From contig JAUSGH010000019.1 in the NCBI GenBank assembly GCA_030649055.1, forward strand, positions 1,454 through 65,453: 64,000 nt of DNA. Reading direction: 5' to 3'. The translations under genes and the position numbers were made by a program. Source of the stretch: a bacterium. GTDB taxonomy: Bacteria; Patescibacteriota; Minisyncoccia; UBA6257; JAUSGH01. Below are positions 7,502-33,355 of the stretch, piece by piece (positions within the stretch are counted from its first letter, which is position 1; every line of letters begins with the position of its first letter). Below the pieces are notes generated by a model. The model did no database searches, was not told the origin of the DNA, and was given only the letters and a program-made list of their open reading frames with translations.

Positions 7502-8618
7502 GTCTGTACGACCGGCGGGGCTTCTGCCGGTCAGAACATCGATTGAACCGACCGAACGTTCCGAACTGAATATTAGAAGCACTAAAAGTAAAAAAATGAA
7601 TGTAACATAGAATGTTTCTATTACGGTGAGCTTGTCGAACCGCTGGAAATTTTCTATGTTACCCCAAATCTGTTCCGAAGGTGGGCGTTTCGCCGACTGT
7701 GTGCACTCGTGCACATTCGAGGCGAGCCGCGAACCTTCTTTCGAGGATTTGATCCTGGTCCAGGATGAACGCTGGCGGCGTGGATAAGGCATGCAAGTCG
7801 AACGGTCGAGCGCACGTTGCGCTCGGTAGTGGCAAACGAGTTAGTAACGCCCTGGTACGTACCCCCGAGTCGGGCATAATTCCGCGAAAGCGGGACTAAT
7901 TCCCGATGGTGTCGCCTTAGGCGACTAAAGGAGCGATTCGCTCGGGGAGCGGCCTAGGTCCTATCAGCTAGTTGGTGAGGTAAAAGCTCACCAAGGCTAC
8001 GACGGGTAGGGGGGGTGAGAGCCCGATCCCCAACGAGGAGACTGAGACACGGCTCCTACACCTACGGGTGGCAGCAGTCGAGAATATTCGACAATGGGCG
8101 AAAGCCTGATCGAGCGACGCCGCGTGCAGGATGAAGGTCTTAGGATTGTAAACTGCTTTTCTACGGGAAGAAGTGTGCGTAGCACACAGTTTGTTAGTTC
8201 GTCAGTTACGCTTCGCTCTAGTTTATTAGTTGGTGAAACTAATTAACTAGCAAACGAACAGCGAGCGGAGCGAGCGGAACTAGTCAACTATGTGCTGCGC
8301 ACATTGACGGTACCGTGGGAATAAGGGGCGGCAAACTTCGTGCCAGCAGCCGCGGTAATACGAAGGCCCCGAGCGTTATCCGGATTCATTGGGCGTAAAG
8401 GGCGCGTAGGAGGTTCGGTCCGTCTCTCGTGAAATCTCGGAGCTCAACTCCGAACCCGCGGGGGAAACCGCCGAACTAGAGGGTGTTAGAGGCAGATGGA
8501 ACACACGGTGTAGGGGTGAAATCCGTTGATATCGTGTGGAACACCAAAGGCGAAGGCATTCTGCTGGGACACTCCTGACTCTGAGGCGCGAAAGCGTGGG
8601 GAGCAAAAAGGATTAGAT

Positions 8619-9690
8619 AAATCCCGTTCCGGCTCCAAAGAAACGGAACAAAGGGTGTCCCCTCCGACGGCGACGTCGGGGTGCGCATTCAGCTATATCG
8701 GGGAAGGCCGTCTTGTCAGGCGGTTAATCCCGAGGGAAGTTATTCAAGCCTCACTTTCGACTCTTTAATTATAGAGAAAAGTGGAGCTTGTGTAACCCCG
8801 TAGAGACTATGTAAGTAAGAAAATAGAAAATGACCAAGTCATTTTTGTTGGATCGATGTAAGGAAATTATTCTGGGTTCTTTGTTGGGTGATGGGTCCTT
8901 AAAGATCTATAAGCCCTACAAAAATGCCCGATTTTCCTTTCGACATTCGGTACATCAAAAAGATTATTTTTTCTGGAAAGTTGAAGAATTAAAAGAAATT
9001 TCCGGAGAGAAATCTTTTTGGGAACAAAAACCGAATAGTTTGGGAGGAGATATGTTGCGATACCAAAGTTTAGCATTAGAATTGCTTACGGAACTGCATC
9101 GGCTGACTTACGAGCATAATTGTCTCGTAATACGTCGAAAATGGCTGAACATGATGACGCCATTATCGCTTGCGATTTGGTGGCTTGATGATGGTTCGCT
9201 TATTGGCAATGGAAAGCGAGGTGTGTTTTGTACCGACCCGTTTTCGTTTCATGAACAAGAGATTTTATCGCAGTATTTACTCAAGGTTTGGAAAGTAAAA
9301 ACTGCGATTGGAAAAATTGTCCGCGAGCGGGAAGGAAAAAAAGTTGAGTACTATCGGCTATGGATTCGTTCAAGCGAAGAATTAAAAAAATTTCTTCGGA
9401 TAATCCTCCCCGAAATACCATCCGCATCTACATTGCCTAAAGTTCTTATTCTTTACAAAGATTCCCAATTACAGCAACGCTGGGTTTCTGAAGTTGTTGA
9501 AGCAACGCATTTTTCTCGAGAGATTATTGAAAGGTATCTTGCTGAGAAAAAAGCGAAATATAAGCGATTTCAGAAAATGATATAGTCCGATCCTCCGAGT
9601 AATCGGAGCATCTAATAGGTCTAAATCCCTAACGCTTAGGAATTAGGATTTAGAAATTAGAAATTGCAATTTTGCCAAGCAAAATTGTTG
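8619..9690 (+). mobile_element. group I intron in 16S rRNA (inserted after GGAUUAGAU, ends with G before ACCCUUGUAGUCC) carrying a homing endonuclease ORF
   Basis: Exon sequence diverges from the universal 16S at 8619 and resumes at 9691. The intron ends in G. Boundaries are accurate to about 1 nt. Confidence 0.75.
8830..9585 (+). CDS. LAGLIDADG homing endonuclease (two-motif, single-chain) encoded within the 16S intron
   Basis: ILGSLLGDGSL and AIWWLDDGSLIG motifs. Low-GC ORF inside the rRNA gene. Confidence 0.8.
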   Translation: MTKSFLLDRCKEIILGSLLGDGSLKIYKPYKNARFSFRHSVHQKDYFFWKVEELKEISGEKSFWEQKPNSLGGDMLRYQSLALELLTELHRLTYEHNCLVIRRKWLNMMTPLSLAIWWLDDGSLIGNGKRGVFCTDPFSFHEQEILSQYLLKVWKVKTAIGKIVREREGKKVEYYRLWIRSSEELKKFLRIILPEIPSASTLPKVLILYKDSQLQQRWVSEVVEATHFSREIIERYLAEKKAKYKRFQKMI

Positions 9691-9786
9691 ACCCTTGTAG
9701 TCCACGCCCTAAACGATGCTGATTAGCTGTCTCGAGTATCGACCCTCGGGGTGGCGTAGCTAACGCGTTAAATCAGCCGCCTGGGA

Positions 9787-9818
<32 letters not shown>

Positions 9819-9829
9819 AGACGGGGACT

Positions 9830-9864
<35 letters not shown>

Positions 9865-9942
9865 GTAAGCGAAGAACCTTACCAGGGCTTGAAATGCACT
9901 TGAAGACCGGCAGAAACGTCGGTCGTCTCTCAAGGACAAGTG

Positions 9943-9973
<31 letters not shown>

Positions 9974-10828
9974 ATCGTGAGACGTTCCCTTAAGTGGGGT
10001 AACGAGCGCAACCCCTCTCTGGTGTTATAAGTGTCACCGGAAACCGCCCCCGTTTTTGCCCGCAAGCAATGAAATGCTTGTGTTCAAAAACGGGGGAGGA
10101 AGGCGGGGATGACGTCAAATCCGCATGGCCCTCTGATGCCCTGGGCCACACACGTGCTACAATGGCCGTTACAAAGGGTTGCCAAGCCGCAAGGCGGAGC
10201 TAATCCCAAAAACACGGCCCCAGTTCAGATTGGAGGCTGCAACTCGCCTCCATGAAGTTGGAATCGCTAGTAATCGTAGGTCAGCTACACTACGGTGAAT
10301 ACGTTCTCGAGTCCTGTACTCACCGCCCGTCAAGCCAGCGGAGTCGGTAATACCTGAAGCCCAGCACTTTGTTCGCAACGCAGTTGTTAACAAAGTGCTG
10401 GGTAAGGGTAGGATCGATGATGAGGGCTAAGTCGTAACAAGGCACGCGTAGCGGAAGCTGTGCGTGGATCATCTACATAAACTTCTATAATTTTTGTTAT
10501 AGAACATAATAGATCGGAGCGCGTCGAAAGGCGCGCGTATGGCGTTCGTCGATGAGCCAAAAGTCTCGACGCGGACTTGCTTTCTGATGAAGCAAGGTTG
10601 GGATAACGCAAAAGTTTTTGATCCTTAGTTTTTACAAAAAATGCGAATGAGGCATTGCGCTCTCTTTCGCGTTTTTTGGTTGTCGTGTAACATAGAATAC
10701 ATGCCCCGTGCTACAACTTCGATGGCGCATAAGCGCGTAGAGATAGGCGAAGTCGGCGCGGAACAAGAGATGCTCTTAACATCAACGACAACCCATTATC
10801 AACATCAATCGAAGTTGTAGCACAGGGT

Positions 10829-16741: not shown

Positions 16742-17701
16742 ATGGAAGCAACAAAGCAACAAAGCAATAAAGCAATAAAGCAAGGGAGCATTGCGGTAAA
16801 ACATAAAAGGGCAGTCTTGCTTCTTTGCTTCTTTGCTTCTTTGCTTTTTGTTATCCCTGCGCTCGCCGGAAACATCTCATCACAGCCGTCGGAGCGTTGG
16901 GCGTGGAGCGACGCGGTGGGCTGGATTGATTTCTTCGGCGTGACGGCAACTCCACCGGTGCTTCAGGGGTATGGGACGGGAAGCGCCATCGGAGAAGTGG
17001 CAATGGATTGCGCCACTACATCCATCGGCAATATTTGCGCAGTGAGTAATTTTAAGGTTGTGAATGACGGCTACGGTAATCTTTCGGGCTGGGCGTGGAG
17101 CGACGCCATCGGCTGGATCAGTTTTTGGTGCGGTAATGTTTCGCCGGGCGATTGCCAATCTTCAAATTATCAGGTGACGATTGATGGCGCCGGAGATTTC
17201 CACGGCTGGGCGTGGAATGACGCCATCGGCTGGATCAGTTTTAATTGTGATCATTCGGGCGATGGGGGGGCTAATCAGTGCACGACCTCAAGTTATAAAT
17301 TGAAGACGACGTATATTCCGGGGGTTCCGATGTATAGCGGTTCCTTGACCTCCAGCGTGTTTGACGCCGAGGTACCTGTTGCCTTGAATGCCATTCTTTG
17401 GAAGGGCACGCTGAACAGTCTTGTATCTTCGTCGGTGCGGTTCCGCGTCGCGTCTTCCAATTGCAGTAATGGGAAAACCAATCCGCCGGTTTGCGACGAC
17501 TCGGGAACGTGGGAGTTTTTGGGACCTAACAGCTCTACAACTGATTATTATATTCCCACCGGTCCGGACGCTCCCGCGGCGATTGATACGCGCGACCACA
17601 ACAACGTCCGCTACTTCCGTTACGAGGTTTTTATTGACTCCGATGTGTTCGGCGCGGTGACGCCCGAAATCAACGACATAATCATCAATTGGAGCCCATG
17701 A
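16742..17701 (+). CDS. secreted protein with three GWAW(S/N)DAIGWISF repeats, candidate pilus-associated adhesin
   Basis: Signal peptide KHKRAVLLLCFFASLLFVIPALA|GN. Repeats WAWSDAVGWIDFF, GWAWSDAIGWISFW, GWAWNDAIGWISFN. Octamer DNA repeats lie in codons 3-14. Confidence 0.6.
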   Translation: MEATKQQSNKAIKQGSIAVKHKRAVLLLCFFASLLFVIPALAGNISSQPSERWAWSDAVGWIDFFGVTATPPVLQGYGTGSAIGEVAMDCATTSIGNICAVSNFKVVNDGYGNLSGWAWSDAIGWISFWCGNVSPGDCQSSNYQVTIDGAGDFHGWAWNDAIGWISFNCDHSGDGGANQCTTSSYKLKTTYIPGVPMYSGSLTSSVFDAEVPVALNAILWKGTLNSLVSSSVRFRVASSNCSNGKTNPPVCDDSGTWEFLGPNSSTTDYYIPTGPDAPAAIDTRDHNNVRYFRYEVFIDSDVFGAVTPEINDIIINWSP

Positions 17702-28213: not shown

Positions 28214-30508
28214 ATGGCAAAAAAGTCGCTCACGAAAGCAAAGGTTTCAAAAAAGGTTGCGGTGTCGAAGGTGTTTCAGTTCACGCGAAAACGCGATGGC
28301 CGGATTGTTCCATTTGATCAAACGCGCATCACCGAAGCGTTATTGAAAGCGCTCCATGCCTCGGGCGAGGGTAATGGACGGGATGCAAAAAAGATTTCCG
28401 ACCGCGTGGTGAAAGTTCTGTTGAAAAAGTTTTCTCCAACCTATGTGTTGAGCATTGAAGAGATTCAGGATTCCGCGGAAAATGCCCTTATCCTCCTTGA
28501 TTACGCAAAAACCGCGAAGGCATATATTTTGTATCGTAAAGAACGCGAGCGGTTGCGCGAAGCGCGCAAAGAAGTGCCGGCGGCGGTGAAACAGCTGGTC
28601 GCCGCGAGTAAAAAGTATTTCAAAAATCCGCTGGCGGAGTTTGTATATTACCGCACCTATTCGCGCTGGATTGACGAAGATGGTCGCCGCGAGACTTGGA
28701 TTGAGACCGCGGGACGCTATATGGCTTTTATGAAGGAGAATTTGGGCGACAAGCTTTCCGAAAAAGAATATGGCGAAGTCCACGAGGCGATTTTGAACCA
28801 GCAGGCGATGCCGTCCATGCGTTTGTTGCAGTTCGCGGGCAAAGCCGCGCGGAAAACAAATGTCTGCGCCTATAATTGCTCGTTTATCGCGCCGACGCGT
28901 TTTGAAGATTTCGCCGAAATTGTCTATATCTCTATGTGCGGCACGGGTGTAGGGTTTTCCGTGGAGCATCAGAATGTGGAAAAACTTCCGCAAATTGAAC
29001 GGCAAACGGGCGAAAAACTTCCGGACTATGTGATTGAAGACAGCAAGGAAGGATGGGCGGATTCGCTACTTTTCGGCATGAAAACGTGGTTTGCCGGCAA
29101 GGACGTGGTGTTTGACTATTCTGGATTGCGTGCCGCGGGCGTACGGTTGAAAACCATGGGCGGACGATCATCCGGCCCCGCGCCGTTGCACGAACTACTG
29201 GACTTTACACGGCGGAAAATTTTGGCAAAACAGGGGCGACGGCTCGGGACGATTGATGTGCACGACATCATCTGCAAAATCGGCGAGATTGTGGTGTCGG
29301 GCGGCGTGCGCCGCAGTGCCTTGATTTCGCTTTCGGATTTGGACGATCCGGAAATGCGCGACGCGAAGAACGGCCAGTTTTATTTGACCGAACCCCAACG
29401 GAGCTTGGCGAATAACTCGGCGGTCTATAATGAAAAGCCGACCGCGAGCCAGTTTCTGGATGAATGGGTGTCGCTCGCGAAGAGCGGAACAGGGGAGCGC
29501 GGCATCTTTAACCGCGGAGGATTGCACACCATGCTTCCGAAGCGCCGCATTAAGGCGTTGAAGGGATATTTGGGTAACTTGGGTACTAATCCGTGCGGAG
29601 AAATTATTTTGCAGTCGCGGCAATTCTGCAACTTATCTGAAGTGGTGGCGCGCCCCGAAGACACCGAAGCGACGCTTTTGGAAAAAGTGCGCGTCGCGAC
29701 GATTGTGGGCACCTATCAGTCAACGCTCACGAATTTTGGCTATCTTTCCAAAGAGTGGAGGGAAAATTGCGAGGCGGAGCGTTTACTCGGCGTTTCGGTC
29801 ACCGGCCAGTGGGATTGCGAAGCGGCGCGTAACCCCGAAGTGCTTCGCAAGATGCGCGATACGGCAATCCGCGTCAATGAAGAATACGCGAAACGGTTTG
29901 GTGTCGGTGCGTCCACCTGTATCACGTGCGTGAAGCCGTCGGGCAATCTTTCACAAACTGTGGATGCCTCCTCCGGCATGCACACGCGCTATGCGGAGTA
30001 TTATATCCGCCGTGTGCGCATTTCGGCAACGGACAGTTTGTTCAAAATGCTCAAGGATCAGAAACTTCCGTATCATCCGGAAGTGGGGCAGTCGGCGGAC
30101 ACCGCCAATACATATGTCTTGGAGTTTCCGGTTAAGGCTCCCGAGGGAGCGGTGACGCGCAAAGATATCACCGCGCTTGTTCAGCTGGAACACTGGAAGC
30201 TCGTGAAGACTAACTACACCGAGCATAACCCTTCGGTCACGGTGTATGTTGCCGAAAACGAGTGGATCATGGTGGCGAACTGGTTGTATAACAATTGGGA
30301 ATACATCGGCGGCCTCTCGTTCTTGCCGAAGGACAACCACGTGTATGCCTTGGCGCCATACGAAGAAATTACCAAGGAGCGGTACGAGGAGCTTCTCGCG
30401 AAGTTCCCGGACGTTGATTTCTCGCAAATCTTTGTCTACGAGCATCAGGACGAAACGGAAAACGCGAAGGAGCTGGCGTGCGTGGCCGGTGTGTGCGAAA
30501 TTAGCTAG
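28214..30508 (+). CDS. nrdJ: class II (adenosylcobalamin-dependent) ribonucleotide reductase with N-terminal ATP-cone
   Basis: ATP-cone VFQFTRKRDGRIVPFDQTRITEALLKA. Monomeric RNR core with NPCGEI and a C-terminal CxxC. Confidence 0.8.
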   Translation: MAKKSLTKAKVSKKVAVSKVFQFTRKRDGRIVPFDQTRITEALLKALHASGEGNGRDAKKISDRVVKVLLKKFSPTYVLSIEEIQDSAENALILLDYAKTAKAYILYRKERERLREARKEVPAAVKQLVAASKKYFKNPLAEFVYYRTYSRWIDEDGRRETWIETAGRYMAFMKENLGDKLSEKEYGEVHEAILNQQAMPSMRLLQFAGKAARKTNVCAYNCSFIAPTRFEDFAEIVYISMCGTGVGFSVEHQNVEKLPQIERQTGEKLPDYVIEDSKEGWADSLLFGMKTWFAGKDVVFDYSGLRAAGVRLKTMGGRSSGPAPLHELLDFTRRKILAKQGRRLGTIDVHDIICKIGEIVVSGGVRRSALISLSDLDDPEMRDAKNGQFYLTEPQRSLANNSAVYNEKPTASQFLDEWVSLAKSGTGERGIFNRGGLHTMLPKRRIKALKGYLGNLGTNPCGEIILQSRQFCNLSEVVARPEDTEATLLEKVRVATIVGTYQSTLTNFGYLSKEWRENCEAERLLGVSVTGQWDCEAARNPEVLRKMRDTAIRVNEEYAKRFGVGASTCITCVKPSGNLSQTVDASSGMHTRYAEYYIRRVRISATDSLFKMLKDQKLPYHPEVGQSADTANTYVLEFPVKAPEGAVTRKDITALVQLEHWKLVKTNYTEHNPSVTVYVAENEWIMVANWLYNNWEYIGGLSFLPKDNHVYALAPYEEITKERYEELLAKFPDVDFSQIFVYEHQDETENAKELACVAGVCEIS

Positions 30509-32875: not shown

Positions 32876-32961
32876 ATAGTACTACTATTGTACCATTGCG
32901 CGGGCATTTGAAAATTGCCGCGTATTTTGTTATAGTCGTTCTAGCGTCATAAACAACGCAT

Positions 32962-33240
32962 TCCCCGGTAGCTCAGCGGTAGAGCGGCGCCCTGTAAGCA
33001 ATTTGCAGCTTTCCGTCGAAAGGCGGATTGAAAAATTTCGGGATAACGGTGAAACCCTCGCAGTGCGGGGGCAATACCGTGGGAACTCCGACGCGAGGTC
33101 GGAGGCACCGTAGAGACTAGATACCGAAATCCCTAACATCCGACATTTGTTGGATCACGGGAGTGATATAGTCCACCCCTATTAGTAATAGTAGGACAAG
33201 TGTAAGGCGAAGGTCCCAGGTTCGATCCCTGGCCGGGGAG
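32962..33240 (+). tRNA. tRNA interrupted by ~207-nt group I intron in the anticodon loop. Anticodon most consistently UGU (Thr), with GUA the alternative.
   Basis: 5' half TCCCCGG-TA-GCTC-AGCGGTA-GAGC-G-GCGCC-CT at 32962-32993. 3' half TGTAA-GGCGA-AGGTC-CCAGG-TTCGATC-CCTGG-CCGGGGA-G at 33201-33240. 7-bp acceptor, U8, A14, G18G19, TTCGATC T-loop. Confidence 0.8.
32994..33200 (+). mobile_element. compact group I intron in tRNA anticodon loop
   Basis: R-like CCGTAGAGACTAGATA and S-like GTGATATAGTCCAC core elements. The 5' exon ends in U and the intron ends in G at 33200. TGTAAG is duplicated at both junctions, so boundaries are uncertain by a few nt. Confidence 0.65.
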
Positions 33241-33280
33241 CAAAAACAAAAATACCCATATACGGGTATTTTTGTTTTTG
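33241..33280 (+). terminator. long AT-rich palindrome AAAAACAAAAATACCC-atatac-GGGTATTTTTGTTTTT after the tRNA
   Basis: Perfect ~16-bp stem. Confidence 0.6.
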
Positions 33281-33355
33281 CGACCGGCAGGGATTGAACG
33301 GGAAGGGGTCGGGAAAACGCGGTCGCGGAATGTGATACAATAAAATAATAATCAT

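Follow-up and report, generated by a model that had tools for sequence, protein, structure and literature searches.

Interrupted tRNA gene in the window

Which tRNA does a gene encode when it is interrupted inside its own anticodon, and between which nucleotides would the interruption be removed? This question is raised by positions 32962-33240 (+ strand) of a 64,000-nt stretch of contig JAUSGH010000019.1 (GenBank assembly GCA_030649055.1), which is called the window here. At this locus, a class I tRNA gene is interrupted in the anticodon by a 207-nt group I intron. An earlier note, made from the same DNA, had taken the host for tRNA-Thr(UGU), with splice sites after 32993 and 33200. Our comparison of sequences indicates that the locus is almost certainly a tRNA-Asn(GUU) gene with a group I intron at position 35/36 (32996-33202).

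ARAGORN in its default mode found no tRNA in the whole 64-kb window. In intron mode, its sole tRNA over the same 64 kb was a split tRNA-Asn(gtt) with a 207-nt intron. The flanks hold the complete class I tRNA that the earlier note had described, with U8, A14, a D arm GCUC/GAGC, GG in the D loop, and a 7-bp acceptor stem in which TCCCCGG (32962-68) is paired with CCGGGGA (33233-39). The anticodon stem GCGCC (32987-91)/GGCGA (33206-10) contains one G27·A43 mismatch, and a 5-nt variable loop (AGGTC) precedes the T arm CCAGG-TTCGATC-CCTGG. CCA is not encoded after G73 (33240). The 5' exon terminates with C32 U33 G34 U35, and joining at 32995|33203 gives a mature anticodon loop CUGUUAA in a spliced tRNA of 72 nt. 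The same note was also correct about the length and the group I nature of the insert, and about the hexamer TGTAAG, which is found twice, with one copy at each junction (32993-98 and 33201-06).

Splice register and identity of the host tRNA

We enumerated the junctions by combining every 5' end within 32990-32999 with every 3' start within 33198-33208, and ARAGORN was run on each product. Across this full enumeration, only two registers combine a U as the 5' exon's last nucleotide, a G at the end of the intron and a 7-nt anticodon loop, namely 32993|33201, which gives Thr(UGU), and 32995|33203, which gives Asn(GUU). The Tyr(GUA) and Thr(GGU) registers were rejected because the intron would end in a nucleotide other than G. 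The exon-U and intron-G rules had therefore been rightly applied in the earlier note, but they allow two registers and only one had been considered there, so that both of its splice sites came out 2 nt away from the boundaries found here.

The Asn(GUU) register was chosen on the basis of four independent lines of evidence, which are the wobble pair of P1, the intron mode of ARAGORN, an anticodon-blind search and an intronless orthologue. The wobble in P1 falls at U32995·G33005, whereas U32993 stands opposite A33007 in a Watson-Crick pair. ARAGORN in intron mode places an intron that starts with aagcaa and ends with caagtg, which corresponds to 32996-33202; this kind of check had been proposed earlier, and it returned the expected 207-nt intron but assigned it to Asn, not to Thr. 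For the anticodon-blind scan, one genome per species was searched with a query made only of the T loop, the 3' strand of the T stem and the 3' strand of the acceptor stem. It yielded six intronless tRNAs, from Saccharibacteria, Thermoguttaceae and one further bacterium, and all six are Asn(GUU), with no Thr tRNA among them (0/6). The same scan recovered two intron-bearing homologues, the parcubacterial L001 and the saccharibacterial L007, besides a single match that is no tRNA. Between the Asn-spliced product and loci L003, L006 and L008, 68 of the 72 positions agree, and the 4 that differ belong to the anticodon stem, where they make up two compensatory pairs.

The fourth line comes from L029, a metagenomic relative of the window that carries an intronless tRNA-Asn at the orthologous site. 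The exons joined at 32995|33203 are identical to this tRNA at 72 of 72 positions, whereas the Thr-spliced product shows 2 mismatches. This complete agreement with an intronless orthologue fixes the 3' splice junction. The identical L029 sequence (17372-17443) reaches 65.9 bits on the Rfam tRNA model (RF00005), for which the gathering score is 29. A comparison with intronless relatives had likewise been suggested beforehand; it confirmed that the intron is inserted in a tRNA, but the product that it matches is the Asn and not the Thr form.

Secondary structure of the intron

The Rfam model Intron_gpI (RF00028), also named in the earlier note as a check, was used to search 801 nt with an E-value threshold. 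It matches 32971-33195 over model positions 1-253, with 42.8 bits and E = 1.8e-9. For comparison, Nakagawa et al. (mSystems 2026, PMC13011429; preprint 10.1101/2025.07.03.662931), who describe tRNA introns of Patescibacteria, used E < 1e-4 as the criterion for group I introns. A gathering scan of the whole window reported only the 16S rRNA and neither a tRNA nor an intron at this locus, because 42.8 bits lies under the curated cut-off of 50, although a score of this size is far from what chance would give.

The core elements GAGACTA (at 33113) and GATATAGTCC (at 33165), already recognized in the earlier note as the R and S elements, are both present, and the intron (32996-33202) contains no open reading frame (ORF). 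We drew the helices P1, P2, P3, P4, P5, P6/P6a, P7 (as a pseudoknot), P8/P8a and P9, and 67 of the 67 pairs are standard. The unconstrained free-energy fold of 32987-33210 reaches -85.3 kcal/mol (z = -4.29), a stability that 0 of 200 shuffles attained. The anticodon stem, P1-P6, P8 and P9 all reappear in this fold, the exception being P7, a pseudoknot. The P3-P7 pairings, whose absence on folding the note had named as a refutation, are thereby accounted for, P3-P6 by the free-energy fold and P7 by a drawn pseudoknot with standard pairs.

The internal loops of P8 (CCUAAC...CACGG) resemble the 11-nt receptor of GAAA tetraloops, and each of the five aligned relatives (5/5) has both a GAAA loop on P2 and the P8 motif CCUAA-N ... 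N-A-Y-GG. Judging from this pattern, the GAAA loop of P2 likely docks into the receptor-like motif of P8, a kind of tetraloop-receptor contact that is known from the Azoarcus intron.

Covariation in the intron family

The intron family was retrieved by a metagenome scan with a 31-mer over the P7 3' strand and P9, which gave 18 loci. The intron ends with ...GUG|UAA in 17 of the 17 loci whose 3' junction lies inside the contig, and it follows CUGU in all 15 loci with a securely placed 5' exon. L022 was excluded from the P1 table, as its guessed 5' exon mismatched its own 3' exon. The pairing of exon CUGU with guide GCAG, including the U35·G wobble and the U33-A pair, is found in 15/15 distinct family members and in 7/7 published introns, one of which has been validated in vitro. 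Across this P1 set the first intron pair covaries, appearing as A-U, G-C, C-G and U·G.

An alignment of five relatives with the same architecture as the window intron was made with MAFFT and gave clear covariation. In this alignment, 94.3% of the cells are paired, compared with 34-48% after a shift of the partner by 1-3 columns, although the variable loops are imperfectly aligned and the pairing is consequently understated in distal P1, distal P5 and P6a. Changes on both sides were counted for 28 pairs, a number that none of 500 shuffles equalled (0/500), and the covarying helices are P2, P3, P5, P6a and P8.

Two layouts share the invariant 31-nt segment that runs from the P7 3' strand to P9. 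In the first, P7 and P3' are separated by two additional hairpins (L001, L011, L016, L021, L025 and L027), and the second is devoid of them (the window, L010, L014, L015 and L019). In L011, L021, L025 and L027, a 34-nt 5' exon the same as that of the window is joined to an intron of the other layout. The 31-nt module is present in Saccharibacteria too; its sharing is partly due to the retrieval by it, and L001 and L007 were found without using it. Four homologous tRNA-Asn introns (L007, L013, L018/L023 and L024) contain HNH endonuclease ORFs of 104-132 aa in the P1 loop. Those of L007 and L013 match Pfam HNH with E ~1e-4, just above the cut-off, and in L007 the end of the ORF overlaps the guide sequence and P2.

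Proposed splicing and alternative readings

Based on the anatomy above, we propose the following course of splicing. Transcription of the precursor would probably be driven by the promoter-like site at 32908-36 and would probably stop at the hairpin at 33240-81. The intron would fold into P1-P9, and its guide GCAG (33005-08) would pair with exon nucleotides C32-U35, so that the U35·G33005 wobble would stand at the 5' splice site. An exogenous guanosine would attack after U32995, the terminal G33202 would then occupy the G-binding site of P7, and the freed 3'-OH of U35 would attack after G33202. Ligation of the exons would give the 72-nt tRNA-Asn with the loop CUGUUAA, to which CCA would be added later. 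Catalysis by the window intron may be expected from its homology to relatives tested in vitro.

Two other host tRNAs have been weighed against tRNA-Asn. A tRNA-Tyr(GUA) is what the literal 5' loop CUGUAAG spells, and the junctions 32996|33204 or 32997|33205 do produce a 7-nt loop with the anticodon GUA. Bacterial tRNA-Tyr, however, has a long variable arm, while the variable loop here is 5 nt; moreover, the intron would end in U or A, its 5' splice site would lack a U·G wobble, and the orthologue in L029 is an Asn gene. The Tyr reading, raised as an alternative in the earlier note, is wrong here to the point of being a negligible possibility. The tRNA-Thr(UGU) of that note, with an intron at 33/34 (32994-33200), obeys the exon-U and intron-G rules and gives a 7-nt loop CUUGUAA, and ARAGORN makes the same call at many homologous loci, e.g. 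L001, L007 and L011. We nevertheless consider it highly improbable. In this register the exon would end at U32993, which is in a Watson-Crick pair with A33007, while the wobble lies at U32995, and the U33-A pair is kept in 22/22 introns. The L029 orthologue reads GTT, the intronless tRNAs with the same 3' half contain no Thr, and the U1-A72 pair and G73, which we take to be traits of bacterial tRNA-Asn from that of E. coli, fit the body of the window tRNA. In homologues, the 33/34 call has been shown by experiment to be an artefact of a 2-nt shift: ARAGORN and tFind often miscall the Asn genes as Thr(UGU) with an intron at 33/34, whereas in vitro splicing followed by sequencing confirms the precise 35/36 junction, and a mutation of the terminal G blocks exon ligation (PMC13011429). 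The Thr(UGU) assignment of the earlier note is the same error as this published miscall.

Several observations weigh against the reading as a tRNA-Asn gene with a self-splicing group I intron. Splicing of the window RNA itself is predicted from the behaviour of homologues, and the RF00028 score is below the curated gathering cut-off. The compared relatives show no variation in P4, P7 or P9, and these helices contribute zero covariation evidence. A convincing P10 between the 3' exon (UAAG) and the nucleotides on the 5' side of the guide was found neither in the window nor in the relatives, where at most 2 unconserved pairs follow a U·U mismatch. In addition, 64 kb of the genome is visible, and the status of sole tRNA-Asn gene is limited to that span. 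A decaying or splicing-dead intron, which would make the locus a tRNA-Asn pseudogene with a working copy elsewhere in the genome, would be in line with the low Rfam score, with an intron that carries no homing endonuclease and with a view of the genome confined to 64 kb. Against it, every helix is intact, and the core motifs J6/7-P7 and J8/7-P7 are conserved along with the guide and the terminal G; the exons equal the intronless gene of a relative and lie between promoter-like and terminator-like flanks; and a genome seldom contains both an intron-bearing and an intronless copy for one anticodon (PMC13011429). We regard decay as very unlikely, and retain the tRNA-Asn gene with a splicing-competent intron as the preferred reading.

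The TGT part of the TGTAAG duplication stands at both junctions because the exon contributes UGU and the intron ends with ...GUG|U, and this part is universal in the family. The AAG part is common only to L019/L026, and no role for it emerges because there is no conserved P10. To our knowledge, group I introns create no target-site duplications, and the duplication was dropped as a mechanism for this reason.

An empty-site relative and intron mobility

L029 (ENA ERZ978523, a groundwater metagenome) has the gene order T2SS-F, HisRS, FtsA, FtsZ and ribonucleotide reductase (RNR) as in the window, and the two are ~84% identical at the nucleotide level over 12 kb. Because its orthologous site is empty and the exons are identical, the intron is polymorphic between genomes of this degree of identity.

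The empty site of L029, the two layouts on the same 34-nt 5' exon and the shared 31-nt module led us to consider whether 35/36 introns are still mobile or recombining within Parcubacteria, even without an endonuclease. The difference in occupancy, the two architectures and the common 3' module are hints, without amounting to proof, that introns were recently gained, precisely lost or recombined, and present-day mobility seems to us possible but rather doubtful. If true, it would imply that introns were gained recently, with the help of an HNH endonuclease supplied in trans or by reverse splicing, together with modular recombination between intron lineages, and it would contradict the published inference of limited horizontal transfer.

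A separate difference between the two genomes lies just upstream of the tRNA, where, in the region ~17300-17371, L029 contains ~63 nt that the window does not have. Copies of a 9-nt direct repeat, ATTCCCCGG, which consists of two leader bases and tRNA positions 1-7, border this extra segment, and the segment could be an insertion or integration scar at the 5' end of the tRNA.

Features, flanks and genomic context

The features of the locus are collected in Table 1. From the end of the promoter-like site to tRNA position 1 the distance is 26 nt. The hairpin downstream of the gene was not flagged by a consensus terminator scan, and microRNA and sRNA matches at 33223-33297 were discarded as spurious, since they fall on this terminator-like palindrome.

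Table 1 Features of the tRNA-Asn(GUU) locus and its flanks in the window.
Feature	Position	Strand	Basis or remark
Promoter-like site TTGAAA, 17-nt spacer, TG-TATAGT	32908..32936	+	Consensus scan 10/12, extended -10 TG; putative function
5' exon, tRNA-Asn(GUU) positions 1-35	32962..32995	+	ARAGORN intron mode; equals nt 1-34 of the L029 intronless orthologue
Group I intron, 207 nt, between anticodon positions 35/36	32996..33202	+	RF00028, ARAGORN boundaries, fold, covariation
P1 hairpin	32992..33008	+	Exon CUGU and intron AAG (32992-98) with UUU and guide GCAG (33002-08)
P2 hairpin CCGUC-GAAA-GGCGG	33013..33026	+	All 5 pairs change on both sides in relatives; GAAA loop invariant
P3 5' strand UUUCGG	33036..33041	+	Partner 33124-29; 3/6 pairs compensatory, 100% of cells paired
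P4 (ACGGUG/UACCGU) around P5 hairpin (33055-33071)	33046..33080	+	P4 invariant, P5 covaries
P6 (GG/CC) and P6a (CUCCGAC/GUCGGAG)	33081..33109	+	Fold and Rfam alignment
J6/7, P7 5' strand GACUA (33115-19), J7/3, P3 3' strand CCGAAA (33124-29)	33113..33129	+	Includes the GAGACUA R element
P8 (UCCC/GGGA) and P8a (AUCCGAC/GUUGGAU)	33130..33162	+	Covarying pairs at the base of P8
S element GAUAUAGUCC with P7 3' strand UAGUC (33169-73)	33165..33174	+	Pseudoknot with 33115-19
P9 hairpin CCUAUUA-GUAA-UAGUAGG	33178..33195	+	Unchanged throughout the subfamily found by the 31-mer scan
Terminal guanosine (omega-G), 3' splice site directly after	33202..33202	+	Family ends ...GUG|UAA
3' exon, tRNA-Asn(GUU) positions 36-73	33203..33240	+	Begins U36 A37 A38; discriminator G73 at 33240
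18-bp perfect A/U-rich hairpin, terminator-like on both strands	33240..33281	+	ViennaRNA -31 kcal/mol; putative function

By its sequence, the host belongs to the Patescibacteria and is of the Parcubacteria/Paceibacteria type, an assignment made because of its HisRS homologues and a 16S rRNA gene with a LAGLIDADG insert. The named best matches of HisRS are all from Candidatus Harrisonbacteria (76%), Pacebacteria, the Parcubacteria group, Liptonbacteria and the Patescibacteria group. The 16S rRNA gene (7737-10479, +) is 2743 nt long versus 1533 nt for the model. It contains an insert of 120 nt near 8181-8300 and a large one with a 251-aa LAGLIDADG_2 ORF at 8830-9585 (Pfam E = 2.1e-34), and a weak Intron_gpI match covers 9336-9609 (24.6 bits, E = 0.0019). 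The large insert probably represents an intron or insertion that carries an endonuclease, a type familiar from 16S genes of the candidate phyla radiation (CPR). Neither a 23S nor a 5S rRNA gene adjoins this 16S gene within the 64-kb window.

The gene at 28214-30508 (+) encodes a 764-aa RNR in which an ATP-cone, RNR_Alpha and a class II insertion domain were recognized, whereas the match to the catalytic barrel is only marginal (22.8 bits). Because it is conserved in L029 with equal length, we read it as probably an enzyme of divergent class II type rather than the product of a broken gene.

Significance for genome annotation

The finding is real but ordinary, since work on Patescibacteria from 2025-2026 has described this class of introns and examined its splicing in vitro. 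It opens no new question, and its main value is practical and lies in annotation. A metagenome-assembled genome (MAG) of this kind could seem devoid of tRNA-Asn because default tRNA finders miss the split gene, and intron-aware tools often call the homologues as spurious extra tRNA-Thr(UGU). Both annotation errors skew how complete Patescibacteria genomes are estimated to be, and likewise their estimated decoding capacity. In this regard, the locus and its own empty-site orthologue form a clean test case in which the splice register is fixed without experiment. The locus also adds one instance, together with a presence/absence polymorphism, to the published retention of self-splicing introns in essential tRNA genes of Patescibacteria.

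Comparison with known tRNA introns

The window locus is one more member of the published tRNA-Asn(GUU) 35/36 class. In 95 complete Patescibacteria genomes, group I introns at 35/36 were reported in 15 tRNA-Asn(GUU) and 3 tRNA-Asp(GUC) genes, and guanosine-dependent self-splicing was demonstrated in vitro for the introns of GCA_016700035.1 (Asn) and GCA_001029755.1 (Asp) (PMC13011429). The list of hosts given in the earlier note, in which tRNA group I introns were known for Leu, fMet, Ile and Arg, is outdated in view of these published and validated tRNA-Asn introns. The window copy is outside the 95 genomes, and it has the host tRNA, insertion site, phylum, junction context CUGU|...GUG|UAA and P1 (exon CUGU/guide GCAG) of the class; default tRNA finders fail there in the same way. 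The intron validated in GCA_016700035.1 has the same P1 as that of the window and is 67% identical to it, and the intron of GCA_030583765.1 (Paceibacteria, Asn, 205 nt; Table S3 of PMC13011429) is 72% identical and shows the same helix layout. The invariant 31-mer of the window subfamily (P7'-P9) was not found in the accessible part of the supplementary tables of that paper. Some Patescibacteria tRNA introns carry HNH endonucleases (PMC13011429). HNH-bearing relatives are present in both the published and the present sets.

The observations that go a little beyond the published ones are the occupancy polymorphism, the two architectures on the same 34-nt 5' exon and the shared 31-nt 3' module. 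Extra hairpins between P7 and P3' are taken here as the hallmark of subgroup IA. The window copy is devoid of the two such hairpins that L001 and L025 have, whereas nearly all Patescibacteria tRNA introns have been assigned to subgroup IA and the classic bacterial tRNA introns mostly to IC (PMC13011429). The reduced layout also occurs in GCA_030583765.1.

Compact bacterial tRNA introns include those of Azoarcus tRNA-Ile(CAU), Agrobacterium tRNA-Arg(CCU), cyanobacterial tRNA-Leu(UAA) and tRNA-fMet. As commonly described, they resemble the window intron in being ~200-250 nt long, ORF-free and situated within the anticodon loop, with a short P1 that is formed from anticodon-loop nucleotides and contains a U·G wobble. 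Further likenesses are the layout of P2, P4-P6, P3-P8 and P9, the GNRA loops on P2 and P9, the conserved core motifs GUAGAGACUAGA and GAUAUAGUCC, and an anticodon stem that is able to stay paired in the precursor. These tRNA-Ile, -Arg, -Leu and -fMet introns are also cited in PMC13011429, and the insertion site sets the window intron apart from them, being 35/36 in Asn as against 33/34 in fMet, 34/35 in Leu and 36/37 in Arg (PMC13011429).

Counterparts in other host tRNAs are the 35/36 introns of Patescibacteria tRNA-Asp(GUC) and tRNA-Tyr(GUA) (PMC13011429, Table S3), in which the 5' exon ends with CUGU as in the window. The Tyr intron of GCA_016699995.1 has the core layout GGGAUAACGGUG...GUAGAGACUAGAUACC of the window intron, and the Asp intron of GCA_023898525.1 has the same layout with one substitution (GGGAUAUCGGUG). 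These Asp and Tyr introns are 71-75% identical to that of the window, and they differ from it in the host tRNA and in a 3' exon that starts with C36 or A36 instead of U36.

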